DNA from: Armatimonadota bacterium
GTDB lineage: Bacteria; Sysuimicrobiota; Sysuimicrobiia; Sysuimicrobiales; Kaftiobacteriaceae
DNA length: 64,000 bases
Direction: 5' to 3'
NCBI GenBank assembly: GCA_037440005.1
Contig: JBBIUY010000005.1
Coordinates: 34,179-98,178, forward strand
Below are positions 41,248-59,696 of this stretch, piece by piece. The first letter of the stretch is position 1, and each line of letters begins with the position of its first letter. The position numbers and the translations under genes are program-made. Under the pieces are notes generated by a model. That model worked only from the letters and a program-made list of their open reading frames with translations, did no database searches and was not told the DNA's origin.

Positions 41248-42512
<1,265 letters not shown>

Positions 42513-42627
42513 ACGATGGGCAGTTCAGTTCCCCGGCCGATCCGTCCCTCCCTGCCGGCGCAGCGACCGCGGCGCCGGCCGGGAGGGCGCGGAATCGGCC
42601 CCGGGGTCGCCGTCGTTGGTGGAGGTG

Positions 42628-43329
42628 ATGGAGTCCCGGCGGATGGACAAGGTCTGGTACCTGCGTCAGGTGGACCTGTTTGCGGGGATCGACGACGAGG
42701 AGATGGGCCGGCTGGTGGAGCGCACCACCATGCACGAGTTCGGCCGCGGCAGCGTCATCCTCCACCCCGACGAGCCCCAGGAGCGGGTGTACCTGATCAA
42801 GGAGGGACGGGTGAAGATCTCCCGGTACTCCGCCGACGGCCGCGAGCAGATCCTGGCGCTGCTGGAGCCCGGAGACCTGTTCGGCGAGCTGGCGCTGGTG
42901 GGGGAAGCCGAGCCCGTGCACGTGGAGGCCTTCGAGGACACCCTCATCTGCGCCCTCTCCCGGGACGACATGGTCGCCCTGCTGCGGCGGCGTCCGGAAC
43001 TGATGCTGCAGGTCCTCCGGACCCTGGCCGACCGCCTGCGGGCGGCCGAGGAGGAGATCGCCGACCTGGTGTTCCGGACCGTCCCCGCGCGGCTGGCGGC
43101 CCTGCTGCTGCGCCTGGCGGAGGCCTACGGCCAGCGCAACGGCACCGGGCTGCGGCTGGCCCTGCGCCTGACCCACCAGGACATCGCCAGCATGATCGGC
43201 GCCACCCGGGAGACGGTGACGGCGACCCTGGGCCGCCTGCGGGCGGCCGGACTGATCGCCACCGAGGGACGGCAGATCGTCATCCGGGACCCCGAGGGGC
43301 TGCGGCGCCTGTCGGCGAACAGGGAGTAG
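42628..43329 (+). CDS. CRP/FNR-family transcriptional regulator
   Basis: cNMP-binding 'GDLFGELAL'. C-terminal HTH 'LTHQDIASMIGATRETVTATLGRLRAAGLI'. Strong SD GGAGGTG. Confidence 0.75.
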   Translation: MESRRMDKVWYLRQVDLFAGIDDEEMGRLVERTTMHEFGRGSVILHPDEPQERVYLIKEGRVKISRYSADGREQILALLEPGDLFGELALVGEAEPVHVEAFEDTLICALSRDDMVALLRRRPELMLQVLRTLADRLRAAEEEIADLVFRTVPARLAALLLRLAEAYGQRNGTGLRLALRLTHQDIASMIGATRETVTATLGRLRAAGLIATEGRQIVIRDPEGLRRLSANRE

Positions 43330-45442: not shown

Positions 45443-46626
45443 CCGGCCCGGACGCCGACGTCCTGGCCCGGGCCTACCGCATCGCGGTCCGCGACCTGCG
45501 GGCCTGCTACAACCCCGACGGGATCGTCGCCGGCCGCCTCCACTTCAACGCCTACTGGGCCCGCGACGGGTTCTGGGCGTGTCTGGGAGCCCTGGCTCTG
45601 GGCGACGCCGACCAGGTCCGCGCCCACCTGGACACCTTCGTCCGCTTCCAGCGCCCGTCGGGCGAGGTTCCCGTCCGCATCGAATTCCTGGGGCACACCT
45701 TCGGCCACTACCACACCCGGCGCGTGCACCCCCGCGCCCTGTTCCGGGCGGGTACCCTGTTCGCCGACCCGCTGGATCCGACGGCCCTGTTCATCATCGC
45801 CGCCCGCGCGTATGCCGCGGCGACGGGGGACCTGGCCTTCTGCGGGCGCTTCCAGACGCCCATGGACCGGGCCGTGGCGTGGCTGGCGGCCCGGGACCGC
45901 GACGGCGACGGGCTGGTGGAAAGCGGCTACCTGGCCGGGTGGATGGACTCGGTGCTCAAGAAGGACAAGATCTTCTACCTCAACGTGGTGTACCTGGAAG
46001 GCCTGCGCGCCTGCGCCGAGGTGAACGACTGGCTCGGCCGCGTCCCGCAGGCCACACAGATGCGCCGGCGGGCGGAGCGGGTGGCCCGCCGGCTCCGGGA
46101 GGTCTTCTGGACGGGGGAGTACTTCGCCGACTGGGTCCACGCCGGCCGGCGGGGAGGGTTCAGCTCCGACGGCCACGTGCTGGCCATCCTCTGGGGGATC
46201 GCCGACGCCGGCGAGACCGCTCGCATCCTCGACGTGATCCGGCGCCGCGGTCTGGAGGCGGACACCCCGCTGAGGACCTGCGATCCTCCGTACCGCCCCT
46301 GGCAGATCTTCCCCTTCTACTACCTGGCGGGGATCCCCGACTACCACTCCACCCTGGTGTGGCCGTGGCTGGGGATCCTGCACGCCGTCAACAAGGCGCG
46401 CCTGGGCCTGCGGGAGCAGGCCGTGGCGGACCTGGCGCGGATCGGCGGGTGGTTCGTGACGGGCGGGGCCGTGGCCGAAGTCTACGAGCCGGACGGACGG
46501 CCCGTCGCCCGCCGATTCTTCCAGGCGGAGGTGCCCTTCGCCTGGCACGCCGGCCTGTACGTCTACGCCCTGCACGCCCTGGGCCTGGCCCCCCTCCCCG
46601 CGGGCGCGTCGGGCGCCGCCCCCTGA
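45439..46626 (+). CDS. Six-hairpin glycoside hydrolase (GH63 / amylo-alpha-1,6-glucosidase-like)
   Basis: 'NAYWARDGFWA', 'YLNVVYLEGL', 'FWTGEYFADW', 'TLVWPWLG' fit an (alpha/alpha)6-barrel glycosidase. The start (GTG 45439) is uncertain. Confidence 0.5.
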   Translation: MTGPDADVLARAYRIAVRDLRACYNPDGIVAGRLHFNAYWARDGFWACLGALALGDADQVRAHLDTFVRFQRPSGEVPVRIEFLGHTFGHYHTRRVHPRALFRAGTLFADPLDPTALFIIAARAYAAATGDLAFCGRFQTPMDRAVAWLAARDRDGDGLVESGYLAGWMDSVLKKDKIFYLNVVYLEGLRACAEVNDWLGRVPQATQMRRRAERVARRLREVFWTGEYFADWVHAGRRGGFSSDGHVLAILWGIADAGETARILDVIRRRGLEADTPLRTCDPPYRPWQIFPFYYLAGIPDYHSTLVWPWLGILHAVNKARLGLREQAVADLARIGGWFVTGGAVAEVYEPDGRPVARRFFQAEVPFAWHAGLYVYALHALGLAPLPAGASGAAP

Positions 46627-46727
46627 CCTCTCCCGCCGTCGGACCCGCGCTGTCAGGTTCCTTACATCCACGCCGACCCGGGTCCGCCTACCATGAGGGT
46701 GTGCATCACGCCCAGAGGGGGGAGTCC

Positions 46728-46907
46728 ATGACAGAGCTCAGCTGTTGCGGGGTGACGTTTGCGTCGGCGGAGGAGCTGGCCCGGCACGAAGTCAAGGCGC
46801 ACGGCGCGTCCAGGCCCGCGGCCGGAAGCTGCTGCGGCCTGACGTTCTACACCCAGGCCGGGCTGGAGGAGCACCTCCGGACGGCGCACGGAAAGAAGGC
46901 TTCCTAG
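46728..46907 (+). CDS. Small protein with tandem duplicated CC-x11-H-x4-H motif
   Basis: 59 aa after SD 'AGAGGGGGGAG'. 'SCCGVTFASAEELARHEVKAHG' and 'SCCGLTFYTQAGLEEHLRTAHG' are an internal duplication. Confidence 0.4.
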   Translation: MTELSCCGVTFASAEELARHEVKAHGASRPAAGSCCGLTFYTQAGLEEHLRTAHGKKAS

Positions 46908-46952
46908 GCCGGGGCCCCGGGCGTCCCCGGCCGGGCGGAGGCGGGATGGCGC

Positions 46953-48104
46953 ATGAGGCGGGCCGTGGTGGCGGCGGTGGTGGGGGTGCTGGCGGTCCTG
47001 GCGGGCGCAGGCCTGTGGCTGCGGCCGGGCCGGCCCGCCGCTACCGCCCCCTCCGGCGAGCGGGTGCCCTTTGACACCACCGAGTGGAGGACGGACTTCA
47101 GCAAGCACAGCGTGCCCCTCGGCGCGATCATCCCGGGCGGACCGCCCAAGGACGGGATTCCCGCCATCGACCGCCCCCAGTTCGACACCGTGGCCCAGGC
47201 CGACCGGTGGCTGAAGCCCCGGGAGCCGGTCATCCTGTTCGAGCACGCCGGCGACGCGCGCGCCTATCCCCTGCAGGTCCTCATCTGGCACGAGATCGTC
47301 AACGATACGGTGGGCGGGCGGCCGGCGGTGATCACCTTCTGTCCCCTGTGCAACACGTCCATCGTCTTCGACCGGCGCGTGGCCGGGCGGGTGCTGGACT
47401 TCGGGACCACCGGCCGGCTGCGGTTTTCGGACCTGGTGATGTACGACCGGCAGACCGAGTCCTGGTGGCAGCAGGCCACCGGGGAGGCCGTCGTGGGGGA
47501 ACTGACCGGGCAGCGGCTCACGTTCCTGCCGTCCCTGGTCGTCTCCTGGGAGATGTTCCGAACCTCCCGGCCCCGGGGACGGGTCCTCAACCGCCAGACC
47601 GGCCACACCCGGGCCTACGGGGTCAACCCCTACGCGGGCTACGACGACATCGCGTCGTCGCCCTTCCTGTACCGGGGCCCCACCGACGGCCGCCTGCCGC
47701 CGATGGCGCGCGTGGTCACCGTGTCGCTGGGCGGGGAAGACGTCGCCTACCCGTTCAGCGCGCTGGAGAAGACTCCGGTGGTCAACGACGTCGTCGGCGG
47801 CAGGCCGGTGGCGGTCTTCTACACCCGCGGGGTCGCGTCGGCCCTGGACCGCAGCAGCATCGCCGACTCCCGCGACGTGGGGACGGCGGCGGTGTTCGAA
47901 CGGACCCTGCAGGGCCGCGTGCTGACCTTCCGCCTGGCCGGGGATCGCATTACCGACGTGCAGACGGGCAGCGCGTGGACCGTGCTGGGAGCGGCCACCG
48001 CCGGGCCTCTGGCGGGGCAGCGCCTGACGCCGGTGGTGCACGGCCAGCACTTCTGGTTCTCCTGGGCGGTCTTCAAGCCCCGGACGCGGGTCTACACACC
48101 GTAA
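46953..48104 (+). CDS. DUF3179-family protein, membrane-anchored
   Basis: N-terminal TM. 'ILFEHAGDARAYPLQVLIWHEIVNDTVGG', 'FCPLCNT'. 383 aa. Confidence 0.7.
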   Translation: MRRAVVAAVVGVLAVLAGAGLWLRPGRPAATAPSGERVPFDTTEWRTDFSKHSVPLGAIIPGGPPKDGIPAIDRPQFDTVAQADRWLKPREPVILFEHAGDARAYPLQVLIWHEIVNDTVGGRPAVITFCPLCNTSIVFDRRVAGRVLDFGTTGRLRFSDLVMYDRQTESWWQQATGEAVVGELTGQRLTFLPSLVVSWEMFRTSRPRGRVLNRQTGHTRAYGVNPYAGYDDIASSPFLYRGPTDGRLPPMARVVTVSLGGEDVAYPFSALEKTPVVNDVVGGRPVAVFYTRGVASALDRSSIADSRDVGTAAVFERTLQGRVLTFRLAGDRITDVQTGSAWTVLGAATAGPLAGQRLTPVVHGQHFWFSWAVFKPRTRVYTP

Positions 48105-48120
48105 CGGGGGGGGTGGGAGA

Positions 48121-48576
48121 GTGGACATCCGGCGGGCTGTCGTGGCCGGAGTGGTGGCCAGCGTGGTCATGGGCATGATCGAGATGATCTACGAGGTCGT
48201 CGCCGGCGACGGGTTCTGGGCGCCGGTGGTGTACATCGGCGCCACCGTCCTCCGGCGCCTGCAGGAGACCCGGCCGCCGGTGGTCTTTGACGTGGGAGGG
48301 GTCGTGCTGGGCCTGGCCGGCCACATGATGAACTCGGCCGTCCTGGGCCTGGTGTTCGGAGCGCTGACGGGACGCCGGGACCTCGGCCGCGGCACGGCGG
48401 CCACCTGGGGAGCGGTGTACGGACTGATCGTGTTCGTCGTCATGTGGTACGGCATCGTCCCCCTGGTGGACCCCGTGATGCGCCAGCTGCACGCCGGGGT
48501 CTTCGCCGTCGCCCACGTGGTGTGGGGCGCCGTTCTGAGCCTGCTCCTGACGCCTGCACCCCGGGCGGCCGCCTGA
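48121..48576 (+). CDS. Hypothetical 4-TM membrane protein
   Basis: GTG start. Hydrophobic 151 aa. No recognised motif. Confidence 0.4.
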   Translation: MDIRRAVVAGVVASVVMGMIEMIYEVVAGDGFWAPVVYIGATVLRRLQETRPPVVFDVGGVVLGLAGHMMNSAVLGLVFGALTGRRDLGRGTAATWGAVYGLIVFVVMWYGIVPLVDPVMRQLHAGVFAVAHVVWGAVLSLLLTPAPRAAA

Positions 48577-48673
48577 CGGCCCCGGCGCCGGCGGTGGAAT
48601 CTTCCCGACACCGTCCCCAGCCGGTCCGTCCCCAGGGCGGGGACGAGGGCGACGCCACGCACAGGGGGATGGC

Positions 48674-49744
48674 ATGGAGAGTCGTGTCCTGACCCGACGG
48701 GACTTCTTGCGGTGGTCCGCCGTCGCGGGGGCGGCGCTGGCGGGCGGAACGATCCTTCGGACCGCGGCAGCCCCGCGGGTGCGGCGGCATGTGGCCGACA
48801 TCCTGCGCTTTTCCTTCCGACCCCAGGGGTGGCCGGGGCAGTTCGGCTTCGTCACCCTGCGGATCCACCCGGTCTTCTTCGACGGCGGGCGGGCCTACCA
48901 CATCCGCACCGACACCTCCGACGCGGCCATGGCCCGCACCGTGGGGCTGGTGCACGCTCCCAAGCTGGCCAAGGCCATCGACGCGGATGCCGCCGCCGAC
49001 TACTACGTCTTCACCAACGGCGCGTCGGGCCAGCTGCCGGTGGTGAGCACCGTGCCCGGACAGGAGGACTACACGCCGGCCTACCGGCTGCACCGGGTCA
49101 CCTTCACCGGGTCCCCGCGGGTCCTGACGTCGGCGGCGCAGATCCGGGACGCGGCGGCCGACGGCCGGCTGCGGGTGGAGGCCACCGGCACCGTGGTGAA
49201 CTACCCGGTGGTGAAGTGGCCGGACGGCGAGATGCCCCACGACCGGGTGCGGACCGCCTACCTGGGAGAGGGGCAGCTGCTCACGCCCGTGGACGTGGAC
49301 CGGCGGGAGGTGACCTTCAAGCTGCAGCAGTGCTTCCCCGGCGAGTGGTACATCGTCACCGACACCTCGGCCTCCCCCATGGCGCCCATGATGCGCATCC
49401 CGGCGTCGCCCCGGACGGCGCTGCTGACCAAGGCCGGAGCCACGGCGAAGATCCTCGTGTTCGGCAACGGCATCCGGGGGTCCGGGCCCATGGGGTTCCA
49501 GCCCTCGGTGGTGGACTCGCTGCCCGGCAACCCGGTGTGGAGCCCGTTCTGGGACCACGTCACCTTCACCTGGGTGGAGGGGCGCACGCCGGTGGTGATC
49601 CGGGACCAGAAGCAGCTGCTGGAGCGCGAGCGGGCCGGCGACCTGCGGCGCTGGCCCGGGACGCCGGACACCCGGGGGGAGCTGTTCGTGGTGAACTGCC
49701 CGATTCCGATCACCAGCCCCGTGCTGTGGCGGCCTCCGGCGTAG
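48674..49744 (+). CDS. Tat-secreted protein with two tandem copies of an uncharacterised ~110-aa domain
   Basis: 'RRDFLRWSAVAGAALAGG' twin-arginine signal. Two internal repeats sharing 'VFxNGxxGxGPxGFQPxV..S.PG.P...P......TW'. The same domain recurs at 55616..56152. Confidence 0.6.
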   Translation: MESRVLTRRDFLRWSAVAGAALAGGTILRTAAAPRVRRHVADILRFSFRPQGWPGQFGFVTLRIHPVFFDGGRAYHIRTDTSDAAMARTVGLVHAPKLAKAIDADAAADYYVFTNGASGQLPVVSTVPGQEDYTPAYRLHRVTFTGSPRVLTSAAQIRDAAADGRLRVEATGTVVNYPVVKWPDGEMPHDRVRTAYLGEGQLLTPVDVDRREVTFKLQQCFPGEWYIVTDTSASPMAPMMRIPASPRTALLTKAGATAKILVFGNGIRGSGPMGFQPSVVDSLPGNPVWSPFWDHVTFTWVEGRTPVVIRDQKQLLERERAGDLRRWPGTPDTRGELFVVNCPIPITSPVLWRPPA

Positions 49745-50795
49745 ACGGCACCGGGCGAGGGCGACTCGCCTTCCGGACCGGATCGTCTAGGGGGGCGCGT
49801 AGATCTCCGCGCGGGGGGTAGAAGTCCAGCCAGGCCCACTCGAAGGCCGGCGTGTGCGGGATCACCCGCAGCACCTGCCCCCGCAGCGGGCCCTCGGTGG
49901 CGATGCCGCGGAGGGGATCCCACACCGACCCGGTCTCCCGGTCGGTGAGCCGTCCGTCCCGCAGGGCGAAGGTGAGGGTGCGGTCGGGCAGCTGGCGGAT
50001 CAGGGTCTGCACCCGGCGGGTCAGAGGGTCGGCATAGAGCAGGACCGGATGGGGGCCGACCCGGTGGTTGATGACGCGCAGCCGCGCGGCGTCCCGGTAC
50101 CGGAAGGCGGCGGCGTGCTCGCCCAGGGCCACCCCCACCACGAAGTCGTCCCGGGGGCGCTCCCGCGCCAGGGGGCCCCGCAGCGTCCCCTCCTCGGCCA
50201 GGACCAGCGCGTCGGGATGCTCCCGTCGCCACGTCCCCCAGGGGACCAGGGCGGCGGAAAGCGGGCTCAGTGTGGTCCCCCGCAGCGGGCCGACCAGAGC
50301 CGTCCCCAGGGGCTGCGACCAGATGGACCCGGTGTCGTGGTCCCACCAGGTCATGGCGCGCATGTACAGCCACCCCTGGTTCCCGAACACCGCTGGCCTG
50401 CCCCGGATGCGCCGGTCATGCACGAGACCGGTGTAGCACATAGCACAGCGGTCACCAGGTGACCAGGACGGGTACGCCGCCGACGGTGTCGTTGACCATC
50501 TCCCGGTGGGTGAGGATGCTGATCGGATACGCCCGGGCATCGCCGCCGATCTCGACGGCGAGCACCAGCTCGTCGTCCCGCACCCGGGTTGCGGCCGCGC
50601 TGCTGAAGCGGGGCCGGTAGATGGGGGGATGGCGTCCCGGGGCAGGACGCGGTGCATCCGCGCCAGCGCCTCCTGTTCGTCGTCGGTCAGAGCCACCGGG
50701 GCCGACCCTCCTCCCGGAAGAGATAACCGGGTCCCCAGCCAGGAGGCCACGACACCTGCCAGCACAACCCACATCCACCTCCTCAGGGGTCGCAT
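49710..50795 (-). pseudogene. DUF3179-family paralog disrupted by two single-nucleotide frameshifts
   Basis: Homology to the 46953 protein runs in frame B (N-terminal TM, 'HRVLPRDAIPP'). It jumps to frame A at a G6 homopolymer at 50623-50628 ('PPIYRPRF...ELVLAVEIGGDARAYPISILTHREMVNDTVGG'). It returns to frame B near 50440-50450 ('DRCAMCYTGLVHDRR'). Confidence 0.5.
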
Positions 50796-50904
50796 GCACT
50801 GTGTATCGTGACAGGCGCGGGGCGGCGCCGCTGTAGGGATGCCTACACGCCGGAGCGGCTCCGGGCGGGGCGGTCCCCGGACCCGGCGACACGCCGATGC
50901 CGCG

Positions 50905-51471
50905 TCAGCGGGCTCCGGACAGAGACAGCAGCTCGTCGGTGAACGCCCGCATCTGGGCCAGGGTCAGCAGCCCCGTGTGGTGGCGGACGATCGTCCCGTC
51001 GGTGGCGATGAAGACGGTGGTGGGCATGCCCACCACGCCGAACGCGCGGACGACGTGGCCGTCGAAGGTGGTCCCCGTGGGGTAGGTCACGCCCAGCTGC
51101 CGGCGCAGGGCCTGTCCCTCCTCCCGGGACCCCAGGCCGATGAACGGCCCGACGTCCACGCCGACCAGCAGGTAGCGTCCCGGCCGGTGCGTCTGGTACA
51201 GGCGCTGGAAGTCGGGCATCTCCGCCCGGCAGGGGGGACACAGAGCCGCCCAGAAGTTGAGGACGACCGGCGCGCGCACCCACAGCGCCGACAGGGCGGC
51301 GGGAGGGTCCGGGTCCCTCCCGTCGGCGGCGTAGAAGACGATCTCCATGTCCGGCGCCGGCCGGCGGGCGGGAGCAGGCGCGGAGGGCGCCTCCGGCCGC
51401 GGGCGGATGGCCACCACGCCGACGCCGACCGCCGCGGCCAGGACCAGGGCGAGCACGAGAGCCCGTCGCAT
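50905..51471 (-). CDS. TlpA/ResA-like thiol:disulfide oxidoreductase, membrane-anchored
   Basis: N-terminal TM. 'VLNFWAALCPPCRAEMP' CxxC. 188 aa. Confidence 0.75.
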   Translation of the reverse strand: MRRALVLALVLAAAVGVGVVAIRPRPEAPSAPAPARRPAPDMEIVFYAADGRDPDPPAALSALWVRAPVVLNFWAALCPPCRAEMPDFQRLYQTHRPGRYLLVGVDVGPFIGLGSREEGQALRRQLGVTYPTGTTFDGHVVRAFGVVGMPTTVFIATDGTIVRHHTGLLTLAQMRAFTDELLSLSGAR

Positions 51472-51474
51472 GGA

Positions 51475-51840
51475 TCAGAACGTGATGATGGTGTATCCGT
51501 CCTCCAGCAACCGCCGCAGGCTGGGGTGGCCGTCGTGGTCTGCGAGCAGCGGGATGGTCTGCGCCTGAATCGTTTCCTGCACGCCGTAGGCGGCGGCGCA
51601 GTAGCGGCAGGCGCCGTACACCGCGTCCCGCACGGCGGCCAGCAGCGGGCCGTAGCGGTGGCCCGGGGAGGTGAGCTCGCCGAGCCAGCGGGTCCCGGCG
51701 CCGTCGAAGACGATCCGCACGTCGTCGCCGGCCTCGTGGAACTCCCTGGCCGCCTCCAGGGCGTTCACCACGCGCCCCAGGTCGCCGCGGGCGTCGGTGC
51801 CCGCCAGGATGATCAGTGCCACACGGTGCATCGGGTCCAC
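51475..51840 (-). CDS. DsrE/DsrF-like family protein
   Basis: 121 aa. 'VALIILAGTD', 'GACRYCAAAYG'. Confidence 0.6.
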   Translation of the reverse strand: MDPMHRVALIILAGTDARGDLGRVVNALEAAREFHEAGDDVRIVFDGAGTRWLGELTSPGHRYGPLLAAVRDAVYGACRYCAAAYGVQETIQAQTIPLLADHDGHPSLRRLLEDGYTIITF

Positions 51841-52005
51841 TCCTCCGTCGGAGTCGTCCGCCCGGGAGGGCGTGCGTCTTGAGTGTCGCCGGCCGTCCCG
51901 CCGGCGATCTGTGAGCGCGCTTACACCGGTCCCCGACCGGCGGCGCGGGGCCGCGGGAATAGGGATCGGGACGCCCGTCGTCAGACGGAAAGGGGGGAGA
52001 CGTCT

Positions 52006-52245
52006 GTGGCCAGGACGGTGGTGGTGTACACCCAGCCGGGCTGACTGTTCTGCGGCAAGGTGAAGGAGTTCCTTCGCCAGAAGGGCGTGCCGTTCGTGGA
52101 AAAGGACATCAGCCGGGATCCGGCGGCCCTGGACGAGCTGATGGAGAAGGGGTTTGCCGCCACGCCCGTCACCGTCATCGACGGTGAGGCGGTGGTGGGG
52201 TTCAACCGGTCCCGGCTGGAGCAGCTCCTGGGAGGGTCGTCATGA
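52006..52245 (+). CDS. Glutaredoxin-like protein with in-frame TGA at the first active-site Cys position (candidate U-x-x-C selenoprotein, or pseudogene)
   Basis: GTG 52006 after SD AAAGGGGGGAGA. 'VARTVVVYTQPG-TGA(52042)-LFCGKVKEFLRQKGVPFVEKDISRDP...TPVTVIDGEAVVGFN' is a complete Grx fold if the TGA is decoded. A 20-nt hairpin GGTGAAGG-AGUU-CCUUCGCC lies 15 nt downstream of the UGA. Confidence 0.45.
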
Positions 52246-52655
52246 GGTCCCACAGCCTGCAGGACCTGGGCCGGATCCTGGAGTCGGCGCGAACCATCGC
52301 CGTGGTCGGGCTGTCCAACAAGCCCGACCGGCCCAGCTACGAGGTGGCCTCCTACCTCAAGGAGGCCGGCTACCGGATCATCCCCGTCAACCCCACCATC
52401 GCGGAAGCCCTGGGCGAGACGTCCTACCGCAGCCTGCGGGAGATCCCCGAGCCCGTGGACGTGGTGCAGATCTTCCGCCGGCCCGCCGAGGTGCCGTCGG
52501 TGGTGGACGACGCCATCGCCATCGGGGCGAAGGTGGTGTGGATGCAGCCCGGGGCGGAGAACGAGGAGGCCGCGGCCCGGGCGGAGGCCGCCGGGCTGGT
52601 GGCGGTGGTCGGGGCCTGCATGATGACCGTGCACCGGGCGCTGGCCCGGAGCTGA
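52242..52655 (+). CDS. CoA-binding domain protein (YccU/YneT family)
   Basis: ATGA overlap with the Grx stop. 'TIAVVGLSNKPDRPSYEVASYLKEAGYRIIPVNP'. Confidence 0.75.
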   Translation: MRSHSLQDLGRILESARTIAVVGLSNKPDRPSYEVASYLKEAGYRIIPVNPTIAEALGETSYRSLREIPEPVDVVQIFRRPAEVPSVVDDAIAIGAKVVWMQPGAENEEAAARAEAAGLVAVVGACMMTVHRALARS

Positions 52656-52691
52656 CGCCAGGGCGCCGGAGGGGACCAGGGGGAGGCCCTC

Positions 52692-53111
52692 ATGCGCATC
52701 GGCGAGCTGGCGCGCCGGACAGGGGTGTCGCCGCGCACCATCCGCTTCTACGAGTCGGTGGGCATCCTCTCCCCCCGGGCCCGCACCCCGTCCGGCTACC
52801 GGCTGTTCGACGATGAGGCCGTCCGACGGCTGGCGTTTGTCCGACGCGCCCGGCGGCTGGGGCTGTCGCTGAACGAGATCCGGGAGATCCTGGAGGTCTA
52901 CGACCGGGGGCAGGCTCCCTGTCCCCGCGTGGTCGCGCTGCTGGAGCGGAAGATTGCCGTCCTCAGCCGGCAGATCGCCGGGTTGCAGGCATTGCGCCGT
53001 GAGCTCCTCACCATCCGCCGGTCCGCCCGCCTGGCCGCAGAGGACGGGCCGCAGCCCCGGTGGGTGTGCCGGCTGATCGAGAGGCCTGCCGGGCGTGCAG
53101 GGGTCCGCTGA
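52692..53111 (+). CDS. cueR: MerR-family metal-responsive regulator (CueR-like)
   Basis: 'MRIGELARRTGVSPRTIRFYE' HTH. C-terminal Cys pair 'CPRV...CRL'. Immediately upstream of a CueR-type operator and copA. Confidence 0.8.
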   Translation: MRIGELARRTGVSPRTIRFYESVGILSPRARTPSGYRLFDDEAVRRLAFVRRARRLGLSLNEIREILEVYDRGQAPCPRVVALLERKIAVLSRQIAGLQALRRELLTIRRSARLAAEDGPQPRWVCRLIERPAGRAGVR

Positions 53112-53117
53112 CGCCCC

Positions 53118-53149
53118 TTGACCTTCCAGCCGTCTGGAAGGTACATCCT
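53118..53149 (+). promoter_or_regulatory. CueR-type promoter/operator: TTGACC -35, then dyad ACCTTCCAG-ccgt-CTGGAAGGT in a ~19-bp spacer
   Basis: Near-identical in architecture to E. coli PcopA (TTGACCTTCC...GGAAGGT). Seen directly at 53118-53149. Confidence 0.65.
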
Positions 53150-53198
53150 GACAGGTGACTTCCCGGCCGGATCCGCCCGCCGGGTGCCGGAGGGCGCG

Positions 53199-55601
53199 AT
53201 GGCCACGGTTCACCTCGGCATCGGAGGCATGTCCTGCTCCTTCTGCGCGGACACCCTGCGCCAGGCCGTCCGCCGCCTGCCCGGGGTGGAGGAGGTCAGC
53301 GTCAGCCTGGCCCACGAGGAAGCCCTGGTGCGGTACGACCCCGCCCGGGTGACCGAGGCGCAGATCGCCGACGCCATCCGCAGTGTGGGGTACACGGTCC
53401 GCGATCCCGCCCGGGCGCGCGCGTACGAGGACGAGGAGGCGGACCTGAGGCGGGAACGGGACCGGCTGCTGGTGGCGGCGGCGTTCACGTGGATGACGGG
53501 CGTGCTCATGGTCCTCATGTGGGTCGGCCGCCCGCTGCCGGCCGCGCGCTGGCTGATGCCCGCTCTGGCGGCGGGCACGGTGTTCGGCCCCGGCCTGGCC
53601 ATTCTGAAGATGGCCGGGGCGTCGCTGCGCCGGGGGATCCTCAACCAGCACGTGCTGCTGGAGCTGGCGGCGTTCGCCGGACTGGCCGGCGGGGCGCTGG
53701 GATTCGCCCGGCCGGACTTCCCCTCAGCCGACTTCTTCGCCGTGGCCACCTTCGTCACCACGTATCACATCCTCTCGGGCTACGCCTCCCTGCTGGTCCG
53801 CACCCGCGCCTCCCAGGCCGTGCGCAGGCTGCTGGCCCTGCAGCCGCCCACCGCCCGGGTCGTCCGCGACGGCCGCGAGGAGGAGGTGCCGGTGGAGCAG
53901 GTCCGGCCGGGCGACCTGGTGCGCGTCCGCCCCGGGGAGGCCGTCCCGGTGGACGGGGAGGTGGTCGAAGGGGCGTCGGCGGTGGACGAGAGCCTGGTGA
54001 CCGGCGAGCCCCTCCCCCGGGACACGGGACCGGGGGACGAGGTGATCGGCGGTTCCGTGAACACCTGGGGAACCCTGGTCGTCCGGGTCACCCGGGTCGG
54101 CGACGAGAGCTTCCTCCACCAGGTGGCCCGGTCGGTGGCGGAGGCCCGGGCCCTCAAACCCGGCATCGTCCAGCTGGTGGACCGCGTCCTGCGGTGGTAC
54201 GTCCCGGCGGTGCTGGCCGTGGCGGGCCTGTCGGCCGTCCTCTGGACCGCGGGGGCGTGGCTGGTCACAGGCCAGCCGTCCTGGGCGCGCGGCGTCTTCG
54301 CCGCCCTGGCCGTCCTGGTCATGGGCTATCCGTGCGCGTTGGGGATGGCGACGCCCCTGGCGATGATCCGCGGCGGAGGAGAGGCGGCGCGCAGGGGCAT
54401 CCTGATGCGCAGCGCCCAGGCCTTCCAGGCCCTCCCGGAGGTGACGACGGTGGTCCTGGACAAGACCGGGACGGTCACCGTCGGCCGGCCGCAGGTCACA
54501 GACGTGGTCGCCCTGGGCGCGGACGAGCGGGAGGTCCTCCGCCTGGCGGCCAGCGCCGAAGCGCCCTCCGAGCACCCGCTGGCCCGGGCGATCGTGGAGC
54601 GCGCGCGGTCGGCGGGCGTCGAACCCGCGCCGGTCCGCGACTTTGCCGCCGTGGCCGGACGCGGGGTCCGGGCGGTGGTGGAAGGCGTGCCGGTGCGGGT
54701 GGGCAGCCTGCGGTTCCTGCGGGAGGACGGGGCGGGCGGGCCCCTTCCCGAGGCCCTGCTCCGGTCCTGGGAGGAGGCGGGCAGGACCGTGGTGGGCGTG
54801 GCGGCGGGCGGCCGGATCGTCGGGGTGATCGCGCTGGGCGACCGGATCAAAGACGACGCATCCGACGCCGTCTCCCGGCTGAAGCAGCTGGGGATCCGGC
54901 CGGTGATGGTCACCGGGGACAGCGCGCGGGCCGCCCGGGCGGTGGCGGAGGCGGTGGGGATCGAGGAGGTGCGGGCCCAGGTCCTCCCCCAGGACAAAGC
55001 CGCCCACGTCCGGGCCCTCCAGGCCCGGGGACACCGGGTCGCCATGGTGGGGGACGGCATCAACGACGCCCCGGCGCTGATGCAGGCCGACGTGGGGATC
55101 GCCATCGGGGCCGGCACCGACATCGCCATCGAGTCCAGCGACGTGGTGCTGGTGGGAGACCGCCTGGGGGCGGTGGTGGACGCCTACCACATCGCCCGCA
55201 CCACCTACCGCAAGACCGTCCACAACCTGGCCCTGGCGTTTTCCTTCAACGGGGTCGGCGTGCCGGCCGCCGCCACGGGACTGGTCCACCCGGTGTGGGC
55301 CATGGCGGCCATGGTGGCCAGCGTGAGCGCGGTCCTGCTGAACTCCTTCGGCGGGAGGCTCCTGCCCAGACCCCGTGCAGCGGGTCCGGAGACGAGGGAG
55401 ATCGTCCTGACGGTCCCCTCCATGCACTGCGACCGCTGTGCCGACACCGTCCGGCGGACCCTGAGCGGGCTGGCCGGCGTGCTGGCGGTGCGGTCGGACC
55501 TGCCGACCAGGCGGGTGGCGGTGGTCGTGCGCGGCGGCGTCCGCAGCGAGGACCTCTGCGCCGCCCTCGGCAGGATCGGCCACGTGTGCGGGGACGCGTA
55601 G
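53199..55601 (+). CDS. copA: Copper-translocating P1B-type ATPase with N- and C-terminal HMA domains
   Basis: N-HMA 'GMSCSFCAD'. TM6 'GYPCALGMATP'. 'DKTGTVT', 'GDGINDAPAL'. C-HMA 'SMHCDRCAD'. 801 aa. Confidence 0.85.
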   Translation: MATVHLGIGGMSCSFCADTLRQAVRRLPGVEEVSVSLAHEEALVRYDPARVTEAQIADAIRSVGYTVRDPARARAYEDEEADLRRERDRLLVAAAFTWMTGVLMVLMWVGRPLPAARWLMPALAAGTVFGPGLAILKMAGASLRRGILNQHVLLELAAFAGLAGGALGFARPDFPSADFFAVATFVTTYHILSGYASLLVRTRASQAVRRLLALQPPTARVVRDGREEEVPVEQVRPGDLVRVRPGEAVPVDGEVVEGASAVDESLVTGEPLPRDTGPGDEVIGGSVNTWGTLVVRVTRVGDESFLHQVARSVAEARALKPGIVQLVDRVLRWYVPAVLAVAGLSAVLWTAGAWLVTGQPSWARGVFAALAVLVMGYPCALGMATPLAMIRGGGEAARRGILMRSAQAFQALPEVTTVVLDKTGTVTVGRPQVTDVVALGADEREVLRLAASAEAPSEHPLARAIVERARSAGVEPAPVRDFAAVAGRGVRAVVEGVPVRVGSLRFLREDGAGGPLPEALLRSWEEAGRTVVGVAAGGRIVGVIALGDRIKDDASDAVSRLKQLGIRPVMVTGDSARAARAVAEAVGIEEVRAQVLPQDKAAHVRALQARGHRVAMVGDGINDAPALMQADVGIAIGAGTDIAIESSDVVLVGDRLGAVVDAYHIARTTYRKTVHNLALAFSFNGVGVPAAATGLVHPVWAMAAMVASVSAVLLNSFGGRLLPRPRAAGPETREIVLTVPSMHCDRCADTVRRTLSGLAGVLAVRSDLPTRRVAVVVRGGVRSEDLCAALGRIGHVCGDA

Positions 55602-55615
55602 GGGAGGGTCGCCGG

Positions 55616-56152
55616 GTGCGCTACGCGGCGGTGGGAGCGCTGGCTCTGGCGGCGGTCTTGACCGGGTACGCCATCGTCTACCTGGCCACGGCTCCACCGC
55701 AGAGGGCGGGGATGTCGGCGACATCCGACCTGGCGCCCTCGGTGCGGGGGCTGTACCGGGGGGCGGACGTCCTGTTCGTCCACACGGAAGCCTCCGACCG
55801 GTCCGTGGCGGAGATGCTCACGGCCATGACCGGCCGCCGGGTGCTGGTGGTCCCCTCCCTGGCCCGGGTCCCCGGCGGCCTGCTGGCCGACGTCTACGTG
55901 TTCACCAACGGCGTGTCGGGGACCGGACCGTTCGGCTTTCAGCCCGACGTGTTCAGTTCGGTCCCCGGGGAGCCGGGCTACACCCCGCTGCGGTCGGTGG
56001 TCCTCGTCACCTGGACAGGCAGCGCCACGCCCCGGGTGCTGGGCTCGGTGGAGGAGATCCGCGCCGCCGCCGACAGGGGAGAGCTCTCCCTGAGGCGGAC
56101 CGCCGTGGTGGTCAACATGCCCATCCTGGCGTGGCCGGGCGGACACCGCTAG
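55616..56152 (+). CDS. Exported protein with a single copy of the uncharacterised domain duplicated in 48674..49744
   Basis: GTG 55616 after GGGGAGGG. N-terminal TM/signal. 'YVFTNGVSGTGPFGFQPDVFSSVPGEPGYTPLRSVVLVTWTGSATPRVL'. Confidence 0.55.
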   Translation: MRYAAVGALALAAVLTGYAIVYLATAPPQRAGMSATSDLAPSVRGLYRGADVLFVHTEASDRSVAEMLTAMTGRRVLVVPSLARVPGGLLADVYVFTNGVSGTGPFGFQPDVFSSVPGEPGYTPLRSVVLVTWTGSATPRVLGSVEEIRAAADRGELSLRRTAVVVNMPILAWPGGHR

Positions 56153-56250
56153 AGTCCCGCCCGGTCCCGCCTCCTTGCCGCCGGGGCGCCGCGTCTGGTA
56201 AGGTGGACACCTGAGTACGGCGTGCGGAGCGCATCCCGGAGGAGACACCC

Positions 56251-56661
56251 ATGGCGGTCACCGAACCGATGGCGGCGCCGTTTGTGCTGCCGGATTTCTC
56301 CGACACGGTGGTCACGGCCAAGTTCTTCCGCGCCCTGGGCGACCCCACGCGCCTGCGCATCCTCGAAGCGGTCATGGAGCGCGAGAAGAACGTCTCCCAG
56401 CTGGTGGAGCTGACCGGGGCCCCCCAGGGGCGGGTCTCCAGCCACCTGGCCTGCCTGCGCTGGTGCGGCTACGTGACCACGCGCCGGGAGGGCCGCCGCG
56501 TCTACTACCGGGTGGCCGACCCCCGGGTCCGCAGGCTGGTGACTCTGGCCTCCCAGCTGGTAGCCGACAACATGCAGCGGATCCGCCAGTGCACCATCGT
56601 CGACCGCCGCAGAGGGCGAGCGGTCCGGCGGACACCCCCCCGCTCCCGCAGGACCTCCTGA
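56251..56661 (+). CDS. ArsR/SmtB-family metalloregulator
   Basis: 'FRALGDPTRLRILEAV', 'VSQLVELTGAPQGRVSSHLACLRWCGYV'. 136 aa. Confidence 0.75.
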   Translation: MAVTEPMAAPFVLPDFSDTVVTAKFFRALGDPTRLRILEAVMEREKNVSQLVELTGAPQGRVSSHLACLRWCGYVTTRREGRRVYYRVADPRVRRLVTLASQLVADNMQRIRQCTIVDRRRGRAVRRTPPRSRRTS

Positions 56662-56878
56662 CCCCCGGCATCTGATCCGGCCGATCCTTTCTGCCCGCGC
56701 GGCGTCCACCCGCGCGGTCTGTGTTTCCACCTGTCCGGACCATGCCCTGAACACCGCTGCGCCCGCCCCGATGGCGGGCCACGCCGACCCCGCGCCCCGG
56801 CGCCGACTCCGGGGAATATGCGCGGGAGCACCCCCGGTACGACCTGACGGCAGACCGATCGAGGGAGGATGGGCGCCT

Positions 56879-57682
56879 ATGCGGGATCCGTGGGAGCTGT
56901 GGGAGGAGCGCCGGGAAGGGCGGCGGCGGCGCACCGAGGTCATGGCCCGACGCCGCCAGATCCTGACCACGTTCGAGCGGGAGCGGGGCAGCCGGGCCAT
57001 CACCCTGATCCACCGGCGGGAGCCCTGGGAGGACGAGGCGCCCTACATTACCATCGAGGACTCGGAGTTCGTCCTCACGCAGATCAAGCACACGCCGCCC
57101 CAGGTGCCCATCGACATCATCGTCCACACCCCCGGAGGGCTGGCCCTGGCGGCGGAGATGATCGCCATGGCCCTGCGGCACCATCCGGCCCGGGTCACCG
57201 CCATCGTCCCCTTCTACGCCATGTCGGGGGGAACCCTCATCGCCCTGGCGGCCGACGAGATCCTCATGGAGCGGTTCACCACCCTGGGTCCCGTCGACCC
57301 GCAGGTGATGGGGTACCCGGCGGGCGCCCTGCTCCGGGTGCTGGACCACAAACCCCTGGCCGCGGTCAGCGACGAGATGATCGTGCAGGCCGAGGTGGCC
57401 CGCCTGGCGATCCAGAACGTCCGGGGCTTCGTCCGGTGGTTGCTGGCGGACCGCCTCCCCGCCGAGGCGGCCGCCCGGCTGGCCGACTTCCTGACCGGAG
57501 GCTACCTGGCCCACGACACCCCCATCACCCTGGAGGCGGTGGCGTCGTTCGGCCTGGCGGTCCGTGAGGGAGTCCCGGCGGCCATCTACGACCTGTTCTC
57601 CACCTGCGAGTTCGGGGTGTGCAAGCGGCCCTGCCTGGCCGCCTACGACCACGCGGGCGTCGGCAGCTCCGCCGTGGCCTGA
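56879..57682 (+). CDS. SDH-family (ClpP/crotonase-fold, S49-like) serine peptidase
   Basis: 'IDIIVHTPGGLALAAEMIAMAL', 'FYAMSGGTLIALAADEILME'. ATG 56879 after GAGGGAGGATGGG. Confidence 0.55.
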   Translation: MRDPWELWEERREGRRRRTEVMARRRQILTTFERERGSRAITLIHRREPWEDEAPYITIEDSEFVLTQIKHTPPQVPIDIIVHTPGGLALAAEMIAMALRHHPARVTAIVPFYAMSGGTLIALAADEILMERFTTLGPVDPQVMGYPAGALLRVLDHKPLAAVSDEMIVQAEVARLAIQNVRGFVRWLLADRLPAEAAARLADFLTGGYLAHDTPITLEAVASFGLAVREGVPAAIYDLFSTCEFGVCKRPCLAAYDHAGVGSSAVA

Positions 57683-57721: not shown

Positions 57722-58741
57722 ATGCACTGGGTGTTGTGGGCGGTGGCGTTTGCCGCCGTCCACCTGCCGATCGTCACCCTGCTGGCCGACCGGATCCTGG
57801 ACGTGCCCGCCCCGCGGGTGATCCGGTCCCTGTGGGTCGCCGGCGCGGCGGCGCTGGCCCTGGTCGTCGGCGTCGCCCGGGGACGGGACCCCCTGCTGCT
57901 GGAGGTGCTGCTGTGGGGCGCCGTCGGCGGGCTGGTGGCCACCGCCGCCCTGGACGTGGTGAGGCTGTTCGGCCACCACGTCCTCCGCGCCTTTCCCGTC
58001 GACATGCCCCAGGTGTTCGGCATGCTGGCCCTGGGACTGGGCCCGCGCCTGCAGGAGCAGACCGTCGCCGCTTTGGTGGGCCACCTGGCCGAGGTCGACC
58101 CGCCGACCCGGCGGCAGATGATGCACCACAGGCTGGTGGCGCTGGCCAGGCTGCCGGAACCGGTGCGGGTGGCCGTCGTCCGGGGGATGCGCGCGGGCCT
58201 GGCGGCGCTGCCGGACGACCGACGCGTCGAGGTGGTCCAGACCCAGATGAGCGTGCTGGCCGACCTTCCGGCGGAGGTCCGGCGGCCGGTGATGCGGGCG
58301 ATGGACCTGGCCGCCGCGGACGACACCGCGCCCGTGTACGCCCAGCCCCGGGGGTTGCCCCGCATTCCCATGGACCTCGCCCGCCGGCTGCTCGCCGTCG
58401 CCCTTCCCCGGGCGATGGCCGCGGCCGGGGTGTCCCGGGCCCGGGTCCTGCTGGCGGGGTACGGGTGGCACGTCCTGAACGGCGTGGGGTTTGGCGTCGC
58501 CTACACGCTGCTGTTCGGGGCCGGCGCCTGGTGGCTGGCGCTGGCGTGGGGTCTATTCATCTGGGCCGGCATGATGGTGACCATGCCCGTGATGATGCCG
58601 ACCATCGCCTTCCCCATGCCGAGGTTTCTGGCCGTTCCCTTCGTCGCCCACGTGGTCATGGCTGTGCCCATCGGGTACTACGCCCAGAAGATCACCGCCG
58701 CGGCCACGGCGGCGAGCCTGCTGGGGGCGTGGCTGAGGTAG
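57722..58741 (+). CDS. Hypothetical polytopic membrane protein
   Basis: 339 aa. Hydrophobic N- and C-terminal regions flanking a helical Arg-rich middle. Confidence 0.45.
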   Translation: MHWVLWAVAFAAVHLPIVTLLADRILDVPAPRVIRSLWVAGAAALALVVGVARGRDPLLLEVLLWGAVGGLVATAALDVVRLFGHHVLRAFPVDMPQVFGMLALGLGPRLQEQTVAALVGHLAEVDPPTRRQMMHHRLVALARLPEPVRVAVVRGMRAGLAALPDDRRVEVVQTQMSVLADLPAEVRRPVMRAMDLAAADDTAPVYAQPRGLPRIPMDLARRLLAVALPRAMAAAGVSRARVLLAGYGWHVLNGVGFGVAYTLLFGAGAWWLALAWGLFIWAGMMVTMPVMMPTIAFPMPRFLAVPFVAHVVMAVPIGYYAQKITAAATAASLLGAWLR

Positions 58742-58802
58742 GCGGCGCGCGCGGCCTCGCCGGCCGGTTTGATGTGCTAAAATGATTTATCCAGAATTCC
58801 GT

Positions 58803-59696
58803 ATGCGGGCACGGGGGGGTGGGCGGTCGGTGGGCCCGGCGGACCGTCCGGCACGGCCGGCGGACGACGAGAGTGTGGCGGCGCGCAAGCGCCGGTTTGA
58901 GGAGATGGTGGCCGCCCACCTCGACTCGCTGTACCGGACCGCCTTCACCCTCGCCCGCCGGCGGGAGGACGCCGAGGACCTGGTGCAGGACGCCCTGACC
59001 CGGGCGTGGCGGAGCCTGCATGCCTTCCGGGAAGGGGAATCCCCCCGCAGCTGGTTGACGGCGATCCTCGTCAACGTCTTCCGCGACCGCTACCGCCGGC
59101 TCAAGCTGTCCCCGCCCGTCGTCCCCCTGGAGGCCGACGACGCCTACGTATACGCGGGGGCCGTGGACGCCCAGTCCCTGGGCGGGGCCAATCCCGAGGA
59201 CGCGGTGGGGGCCGAGGAGCTGTCCGACCCGGTGCTGCAGGCCATCCGCGACCTGCCGGTGATCTTCCGGGAGCCCCTCCTGCTGGTGGATCTGGAGGGG
59301 TTCAGCTACCACGAGGCGGCGGAGATTCTGGGCGTGCTCACGGGGACGGTGATGAGCCGGCTGCATCGGGCCCGCCGGCGGCTGGCCCGGGCCCTGGGCG
59401 GGTCGTCGCCCGCGTCCCGGGAGCACCGGACGCCGCGCCGCCGGCGCCCGGGGCCCCACGCCCGCCGGGTCATCACCTGCGGGGAGGCCTGCCGGTACCT
59501 GCACGCGTACGTGGACGGCGTCCTTGACGCCTCCGACAGCCGGCGGGTGGACGAGCACCTGGCCACCTGTCGGGGGTGCTGCGACCGGCTGGAGTTCGTA
59601 CGGCGACAGAGAGCTCTGCTGGTGGCGCACCACCTGGGCACGACGGTGCCCCGGGCGCTGCTGTCCCGGCTGCAGGCGTTGATCGTGGCGTTCTGA
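58803..59696 (+). CDS. ECF sigma factor fused to a C-terminal zf-HC2 (ZAS) anti-sigma domain
   Basis: Sigma region 2 'DLVQDALTRAWRSLHAFREGESPRSWLTAILVNVFRD'. Region 4 'SYHEAAEILGVLTGTVMSRLHRARRRL'. Then 'CGEACRYLHAYVDGVLD...VDEHLATCRGCCDRLEF' (H-x3-C-x2-C). The start is ambiguous (58782/58803/58830). Confidence 0.6.
   Translation: MRARGGGRSVGPADRPARPADDESVAARKRRFEEMVAAHLDSLYRTAFTLARRREDAEDLVQDALTRAWRSLHAFREGESPRSWLTAILVNVFRDRYRRLKLSPPVVPLEADDAYVYAGAVDAQSLGGANPEDAVGAEELSDPVLQAIRDLPVIFREPLLLVDLEGFSYHEAAEILGVLTGTVMSRLHRARRRLARALGGSSPASREHRTPRRRRPGPHARRVITCGEACRYLHAYVDGVLDASDSRRVDEHLATCRGCCDRLEFVRRQRALLVAHHLGTTVPRALLSRLQALIVAF

Follow-up and report, generated by a model that had tools for sequence, protein, structure and literature searches.

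DUF7482 proteins of an armatimonadotal gene island: candidate extracytoplasmic soft-metal-binding partners of YPC-type P1B ATPases and mer operons

Related systems and how the locus compares

The closest described counterparts of the genes dealt with here are the extracytoplasmic proteins CopL, MerP and the CusF/CopC-type chaperones, together with the P1B-type heavy-metal ATPases. CusF/CopC-type chaperones are small all-beta proteins. CopA and the other P1B-1 pumps are defined by CPC in transmembrane helix (TM) 4, YN in TM5 and MxxSS in TM6, and CPC is the motif that Cu(I) and Zn(II) pumps carry where the pump described below has YPC. In Staphylococcus aureus, the gene of the surface lipoprotein CopL follows that of a P1B-3 ATPase, and the His/Met clusters conserved in CopL have been proposed, but not yet tested, as copper ligands (PMC5947656). 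For pumps of the YPC type, the sole functional test that we found in the searchable literature is that of CopAL6, which has heavy-metal-associated (HMA) domains at both ends; it lowered copper resistance and gave the highest copper accumulation in Escherichia coli lacking copA (PMC11082258), the reverse of what an exporter would do. Here we analyze a stretch of 64,000 nucleotides (the window) from an Armatimonadota bacterium (assembly GCA_037440005.1, contig JBBIUY010000005.1, positions 34,179 to 98,178), with a base composition of 73% G+C, in which two genes code for proteins of the uncharacterized family DUF7482. One of them (P1) carries the domain as a tandem pair and is predicted to be exported by the twin-arginine translocation (Tat) pathway, and the other (P2) carries a single, membrane-anchored copy and is encoded directly after a YPC-type P1B ATPase. 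All coordinates are collected in Table 1.

CopL, with its tandem DUF1541 domains and its copXL/copBL operon, appears to be the nearest functional precedent for P2, although it belongs to a different family. Both have a surface tether, a gene located right after that of a P1B ATPase, and relatives or forms with tandem domains. However, a Pfam scan of the DUF7482 proteins returned only DUF7482 (plus TAT_signal for P1) and no DUF1541 match, the predicted fold of DUF7482 is alpha/beta, the partner ATPase is of the YPC type instead of the CPH-type P1B-3, and mer operons contain DUF7482 genes as well. MerP is likewise extracytoplasmic, and single-domain DUF7482 genes occur inside merR-merA operons (loci L102, L110 and L124); in contrast to MerP, the DUF7482 domain has no GMxCxxC motif, no Cys and no HMA match, and it is about twice the size. 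With the CusF/CopC-type chaperones the domain would share His and Met as candidate ligands, invariant Trp residues nearby and the condition of exported partner of an efflux pump, but neither P1 nor P2 had a Pfam match to those families, and the predicted alpha/beta fold includes three helices. Regarding the pump, the ATPase of the window resembles P1B-1 CopA in passing the subfamily models TIGR01525 and TIGR01511 and in having HMA domains and the DKTGT motif. It differs in having YPC for CPC, FN for YN, AMxAMxxSV for MxxSS and a second, C-terminal HMA domain, and in remaining well below the cutoff of the CopA equivalog model NF007952 (458 bits against 1316).

The DUF7482 repeat

A first reading of this DNA, made from the sequence only, had described a domain present three times, as a pair in P1 and as a single copy in P2. 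Both open reading frames (ORFs) and the three copies hold. Aligned with each other by composition-adjusted BLASTP, the two halves of P1 are 32% identical (E=4e-11), and P2 is 49% identical to half 1 (E=5e-18) and 37% identical to half 2 (E=3e-15). The profile of the P2 family matched residues 66-186 of P1 with a probability of 99.7% and E=2.7e-27 (hhalign). Significant matches by both composition-adjusted BLASTP and profile-profile alignment indicate that the similarity is not due to low-complexity bias. The sequence-only reading could not assign the repeat to a named family, but one exists, since both proteins are members of Pfam PF24298 (DUF7482), whose model P1 matches with 244.1 bits and P2 with 91.7 (gathering threshold, 27.5). 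The family is nonetheless as uncharacterized as had been thought: no function is attached to the entry, a literature search found no paper naming DUF7482, and the profile searches led to no better-characterized family, NCBIfam profiles giving nothing for P1 except the Tat signal and no match for P2. Equally, a search of the PDB sequences with the family profile gave no match at E up to 10, and Foldseek comparison of the P1 and P2 models with the PDB gave best E values of 0.49 and 0.43 with TM-scores below 0.2 (the top rows were short CARF or FimA fragments), which we took as no match.

The Pfam model has 257 positions, of which P2 covers only 2-117, so that PF24298 models the tandem pair as one domain. 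The half-unit stands alone in more than 1300 sequence clusters. It measures ca. 125-145 amino acids and not the ca. 110 first estimated, because an N-terminal beta-hairpin belongs to it. In the AlphaFold2 models the unit consists of a beta-hairpin, two helices, a strand, long conserved loops, a second strand, a helix and a final beta-hairpin. The relatives with a named source belong to Armatimonadota, Chloroflexota, Actinomycetota and Nitrospirota. The shared signature that had been read from the sequence is found in repeat 2 and in P2, but its "GP.GFQP" part is absent from repeat 1, which has a deletion of six residues where the other two copies share GPxGFQ. Toward the end of the unit, the alignment column of Met168, invariant among P2-type proteins (VVNMP), holds Cys342 in repeat 2 of P1 (VVNCP), which is invariant as well, and Tyr177 in repeat 1 (VVNYP). 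To judge from the alignment, this exchange of a thioether for a thiolate at a fixed position is what would be expected of a soft-metal ligand.

The single-domain protein and its neighbors

P2 starts at a GTG codon (MRYAAVGA...) 15 nt past the stop codon of the ATPase gene, at a position that matches the consensus start of the family, and it is preceded by the ribosome-binding site GGGGAGGG. Its AlphaFold2 model, with a predicted local distance difference test score (pLDDT) of 89, has a TM helix (residues 2-25), in agreement with the export signal noticed in the sequence-only reading, and a disordered tether (residues 27-37). We retrieved 1382 homologues, each of ca. 180 amino acids. Several of them have a lipobox (LAAC, FAAC) in place of the TM helix, which supports an outward-facing and membrane-tethered placement for the P2-type proteins. 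Throughout the family the domain contains no Cys, apart from that of the lipobox in the lipoprotein forms. Invariant residues are H56-T57-E58-A59-S60, M71, G104-P105, G107-F108-Q109, D111, Y122 and P124-L125-R126 and, in the C-terminal part, W133, N167-M168-P169, W173 and R178; M67 and M72 are almost invariant. The core motifs are kept by distant homologues in other phyla. The tether is richer in Met than the domain (10.9% versus 3.4% in 109 homologues), and 73 of these 109 sequences have at least two Met in it. An extreme case is the lipoprotein homologue P0238, with a tether of 139 residues (ca. 25-165) that contains 28 Met, including MxxM and MMxMM runs. Runs of the MxxM type are typical of exported proteins that bind Cu(I) or Ag(I). 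Incidentally, another homologue (P0144) is an independent tandem of P2-type domains.

The genomic context of P2-type genes was examined in metagenomic contigs, for which 80 loci were fetched and the 37 of at least 4 kb were counted, the window included. A P1B ATPase gene was present in 22 of these 37 loci, always on the same strand; in 18 of them it preceded the P2-type gene, and in 15 the distance was no more than 500 bp. MerR-family genes and MerA-like flavoprotein genes were found in 17 loci each, and altogether 32 of the 37 had one or more of these three kinds of gene within 5 kb. The ATPase appears in 10 of the 11 clusters into which the P2 proteins fall at 70% identity, and P2-type genes stand on the same strand next to one ATPase subtype across phyla, with the ATPases themselves only 36% to 70% identical. 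The sequence GYPCALGMATP was found in 17 of 21 ATPases from P2 loci. These pumps also show FN for YN and AMxAMxxSV for MxxSS, and their N-terminal HMA domain is often joined by another at the C terminus. YPC is present in 116 of the 120 closest homologues of the window ATPase (59-100% identity). The few of these homologues with a named source come from Armatimonadota, Acidobacteriota, Binatia, Deltaproteobacteria, Methylomirabilota, Planctomycetes, Bacteroidota and Tectimicrobiota. In the reciprocal direction, we took four YPC ATPases (from Acidobacteriota, Binatia, Tectimicrobiota and an unclassified metagenome contig), and all four had a DUF7482 gene one or two genes downstream. The regulator in these loci was a MerR, upstream or divergent, in three and a member of the CsoR family of Cu(I) sensors in the other, and in two of the four the module included an HMA protein and/or a CcdA-like membrane protein (DsbD_TM).

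P2-type genes coding for lipoproteins were also found inside three mer operons, with the orders MerA-DUF7482-HMA-CcdA-like-MerR-MerB (L110, with NmerA and a C-terminal SCCAG in MerA), MerR-MerA-CcdA-like-DUF7482 (L124) and MerA-DUF7482-HMA (L102). The L110 proteins that we compared with Pfam included no MerT, MerP or MerC; coverage of L124 and L102 was incomplete. A flavoprotein gene follows the P2-type gene in the clade closest to the window, and we rejected it as MerA, since the protein of L090 has no C-terminal Cys pair; true MerA was found in other clades. It should be noted that CcdA/DsbD_TM-like proteins (with SPCxFP and a second Cys) and small HMA proteins recur beside single-domain DUF7482 genes, in loci with the ATPase and in mer operons alike (L110:5093-10800, L124:3884-7483, L169:5001-9289 and L170:4685-8635). 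The CcdA-like protein may serve as a metal conduit.

Within the window, the MerR-family regulator ends 7 nt ahead of the ATPase start, so that regulator, pump and P2 are probably on one transcript. These two neighbors had been labeled CueR and CopA in the sequence-only reading, names that turn out to be too specific. Besides the YPC motif of the pump, the regulator is below the cutoff of every NCBIfam equivalog (CadR, ZntR, CueR and MerR), including CueR TIGR02044 (88.9 bits against 147.4). Its only cysteines are Cys77 and Cys126, both kept in the homologue of L090, while in CueR residue 77 is Ser and the loop contains two cysteines. The region 51840-52005 was searched for inverted repeats that could act as a MerR-type operator, but only short GC-rich palindromes appeared, none of them convincing.

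The tandem protein and its neighbors

The N terminus of P1 (MESRVLTRRDFLRW) follows the Tat pattern S/T-R-R-x-F-L-K followed by a hydrophobic region, and it passes both the Pfam TAT_signal model (PF10518, 24.5 bits, cutoff 22.7) and TIGR01409 (19.1, cutoff 16.7). The two arginines, R8 and R9, are invariant in an alignment of 40 homologues. P1 is therefore predicted to be exported through the Tat pathway, as already suspected. Its AlphaFold2 model (pLDDT 91, predicted TM-score 0.85) has a helix at residues 8-22 and low pLDDT at 23-30. The 449 homologues retrieved, each of ca. 355-400 amino acids, all belong to PF24298; the closest genome locus (85% identical) is from a metagenome-assembled genome of Armatimonadota, "Candidatus Calidihabitans tengchongensis". 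Repeat 1 has lost the GPxGFQ loop and the Met residues and keeps the terminal motif only as VVNYP, whereas in repeat 2 the invariant residues are C220, M236, M240, M273, Q276, H295, N341 and C342.

We examined 80 genome loci of P1-type genes plus the window (81 in total). The commonest neighbor was a DUF3179 gene, present in 46 loci; its median distance upstream was 206 bp, and in 32 of these loci it was no more than 1 kb away. It was still found in 21 of the 52 most distant loci (40-50% identity). A Crp/Fnr regulator was present in 39 of the 81 and a TlpA-like thioredoxin in 32, followed by DsrE-like genes (10 loci) and by small thioredoxin-like and CcdA-like genes (ca. 10 each). Often the Crp/Fnr gene immediately follows that of the tandem protein, and in L167 (8059-8781) it overlaps the P1 stop codon; the same locus also holds MerA, ArsR, an HMA ATPase and MerR. 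The only Crp-like gene of the window (42325..43329) is ca. 5 kb upstream of P1 and may be unrelated.

A coupling of P1 to the ATPase was considered and rejected, since an ATPase was present in only 2 of the 81 P1 loci. From this we conclude that P1 and P2 are two separable modules that share one island here. The sequence-only reading had described the two genes as bracketing the island and had suggested a link to metal or thiol-redox homeostasis; the link is supported, for two modules and not for one system, and the bracketing is not strict, because a further DUF3179 gene lies upstream of P1.

Proposed role and alternatives

We propose, giving it about an even chance of being right, that P2 and its relatives are extracytoplasmic accessories that bind soft metals, Cu(I) and, in mer operons, Hg(II). 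A single helix (in other lineages, a lipid anchor) would hold P2 on the outer side of the membrane, and its gene would be co-transcribed with those of the MerR-family regulator and the YPC-type ATPase. From the surface, P2 would accept metal from the membrane transporter or deliver metal to it, a part played in other systems by CopL, CusF or MerP. Candidate ligands are His56, Met71 and Met168, which in many homologues would be aided by the Met-rich tether. P1 would be a Tat-exported pseudo-dimer paralogue with one retained site, in repeat 2, where Cys342 replaces Met168, and its partners would be TlpA-type reductases and DUF3179, an exported protein with CxxC, not the ATPase. An extracytoplasmic role connected with metal or thiol-redox homeostasis, already suggested when only the sequence had been read, is supported by the context of both forms, i.e., P1B ATPase, MerR/CsoR regulators and MerA on one side and DUF3179, TlpA-like and CcdA-like proteins on the other.

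Several observations weigh against this proposal. The P2 of the window itself has Thr at position 72 and a single Met in its tether, and the Met-rich tether is a lineage-specific feature, distant homologues having short and Met-poor ones. The candidate ligand set is drawn from conservation and from the tethers, and a protein free of Cys would be unusual as a carrier of Hg(II). Five of the 37 P2 loci have none of the three characteristic neighbors and other P2 homologues are found in unrelated neighborhoods; many P1 homologues (e.g., in Dehalococcoidia loci) likewise lack metal or redox neighbors. Finally, the outcome of the CopAL6 experiment fits poorly with a simple picture of an exporter plus a sink. 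Either the pump needs a DUF7482 partner for the release of the metal, or the system moves metal inward, like mer transport; CopAL6 is a putative member of the subfamily of the window pump, by its motif and domain order.

Inward movement would make P2 an uptake receptor, a Cys-free counterpart of MerP that passes Hg(II) or Cu(I) through the CcdA-like protein or the YPC ATPase to a cytoplasmic HMA protein, and from there to MerA or to another cytoplasmic detoxification. The location of P2-type genes directly after merA, the recurrence of CcdA-like and HMA genes there, and the absence of MerT, MerP and MerC among the L110 proteins scanned (with L124 and L102 not fully covered) all favor such a route, as does the increased copper accumulation with lowered resistance caused by the YPC-type CopAL6 in E. 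coli lacking copA (PMC11082258). Yet it seems unlikely to us, given that CopAL6 is tied to the window pump by motif and domain order only, that P2 offers no Cys for Hg(II) and that no CcdA-like gene is found beside P2 in the window. Moreover, to our knowledge all well-studied P1B ATPases export from the cytoplasm. If instead the tight and reciprocal coupling to the ATPase, on the same strand and with short gaps (15 nt in the window), is taken as the main clue, P2 could be a noncatalytic structural or regulatory subunit of the pump that binds no metal and acts in its folding, stability or gating, by a logic comparable to that of the single-pass partners of other P-type ATPases. This is improbable, because P2-type genes are found beside merA in loci without any ATPase (L102 and L110), the interchange of TM helix and lipobox argues against a specific helix-helix contact, and the Met-rich tethers suggest metal chemistry.

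An enzyme would be another way to understand so many invariant polar residues (His, Glu, Asp, Gln, Arg and Asn), and in P1 the invariant Cys pair C220/C342, accompanied by DUF3179 (CxxC), TlpA, DsrE and a probable seleno-glutaredoxin, points in the same direction. DUF7482 would then be an extracytoplasmic enzyme or redox protein acting on thiols, selenols or sulfur compounds, or in Cu(I) oxidation, and the metal context would be one of damage repair. Nevertheless, no cofactor-binding motif was found, the PDB sequence and Foldseek searches gave no likeness to any enzyme fold, P2 has no Cys, and the loss of conserved loops in repeat 1 of P1 is easier to reconcile with a binding scaffold than with an enzyme that requires both sites, all of which makes this quite unlikely. 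Lastly, the neighborhoods might be incidental, with DUF7482 proteins being general envelope proteins carried in mobile metal-resistance islands, as the homologues in unrelated neighborhoods could suggest. We consider this very unlikely in view of the same-strand adjacency to one ATPase subtype across phyla and of the reciprocal check, positive in all four cases.

Should P2-type proteins be soft-metal-binding accessories, as we propose, DUF7482, with thousands of members in Pfam, would gain a concrete and testable role, and its partner is flagged as a widespread subtype of P1B ATPases in which YPC replaces the canonical CPC metal site. If the pairing is functional, it would represent a new extracytoplasmic component of copper and mercury resistance in Armatimonadota, Chloroflexota, Acidobacteriota, Binatia and others, and it could explain the uptake of mercury by mer operons without merT and merP. 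A more speculative extension, to which we give a low probability, is that the YPC ATPase, the single-domain DUF7482 protein, the small HMA protein and the CcdA-like protein make up an undescribed soft-metal trafficking system of cop-like and mer operons. The Cys-free His/Met surface protein would be its obligatory extracytoplasmic partner, possibly feeding metal inward, and the YPC pump would be an importer or bidirectionally coupled.

Other genes of the island

Table 1. Features of the island, with positions in the window
Feature	Coordinates	Strand	Characteristics	Match or basis
59-amino-acid cytoplasmic protein	46728..46907	+	two CCG-x2-F-x8-H-x4-H motifs	zf-C2H2, 30.8 bits (cutoff 25.2)
DUF3179 protein	46953..48104	+	N-terminal anchor, CPLC motif	PF11376, E=3.9e-107
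Small membrane protein	48121..48576	+	between the DUF3179 gene and P1	hydrophobic segments read by eye only
P1	48674..49744	+	356 amino acids, predicted Tat export, two tandem DUF7482 domains	PF24298, E=2.5e-72, residues 70-314
Twin-arginine signal peptide of P1	48674..48772	+	TRRDFLR, then hydrophobic helix	cleavage site inferred only
DUF7482 repeat 1 of P1	48845..49231	+	residues ca. 58-186; degenerate copy	
DUF7482 repeat 2 of P1	49286..49723	+	residues ca. 205-350; GPMGFQ kept	
Second DUF3179 gene	49710..50892	-	frameshift near 50445	two tblastn segments in different frames
TlpA/ResA-like membrane-anchored thioredoxin	50905..51471	-	WAALCPPC	AhpC-TSA and Redoxin; ResA and TlpA models below cutoff
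DsrE-like protein	51475..51840	-		PF02635, 24.9 bits (cutoff 22.7)
Glutaredoxin-like gene	52006..52245	+	in-frame TGA at 52042-52044	Pfam Glutaredoxin match on the downstream part
CoA_binding_2 protein	52242..52655	+	between glutaredoxin-like gene and regulator; order repeated in related loci	
MerR-family regulator	52692..53111	+		Pfam MerR, MerR_1 and MerR-DNA-bind
P1B-type heavy-metal ATPase, YPC type	53118..55601	+	conserved upstream partner of P2-type genes; YPC at nt 54327-54335	
P2	55616..56152	+	178 amino acids, membrane-anchored, one DUF7482 domain	PF24298, E=8e-26, profile positions 2-117
N-terminal transmembrane anchor of P2	55619..55690	+	residues 2-25	
DUF7482 domain of P2	55736..56149	+	residues 41-178; no Cys	
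ArsR-family regulator	56251..56661	+	downstream of P2	HTH_5, E=3.5e-15

DUF3179 has been listed among the families with a selenoprotein form, UxxC/T (PMC9312934), which together with the CPLC motif of the protein encoded upstream of P1 suggests a chemistry of thiols or selenols on the outside of the cell. The second DUF3179 gene was called as two pieces of 226 and 43 amino acids; the N-terminal part is in the ORF 50452..50892 and the rest in the frame 49710..50795. It is either a pseudogene or an assembly error. The small membrane protein that precedes P1 had only weak Pfam matches below the cutoff, and related ORFs are present in 9 and 8 P1 loci (two clusters). Farther upstream, the double CCG motif of the 59-amino-acid protein was found close upstream of a P1-type gene or of its DUF3179 neighbor in 7 of the 81 P1 loci and in none of the 37 P2 loci.

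The "Grx" label given to the gene between DsrE and the regulator is backed by the Glutaredoxin match, but the gene actually starts at 52006 and is read through an in-frame TGA. This codon is located at the first Cys of the CxxC motif (VVVYTQPG-U-LFCGK) and is kept in 10 distinct homologous loci with 54-93% identity, so that the product is probably a selenoprotein. A 9-bp hairpin (52059-52078) lies 15 nt downstream of the TGA. An Rfam scan of positions 46000-57000 gave no match at E up to 1 to a selenocysteine insertion sequence or other RNA element.

Beyond P2, the ArsR gene is followed by genes for an SDH-type ClpP-like protease (56771..57682) and an unassigned membrane protein (57722..58741), and downstream of them (58782..59696, plus strand) there is a sigma factor of the extracytoplasmic function type with a fused C-terminal zf-HC2 segment, similar to an anti-sigma factor.

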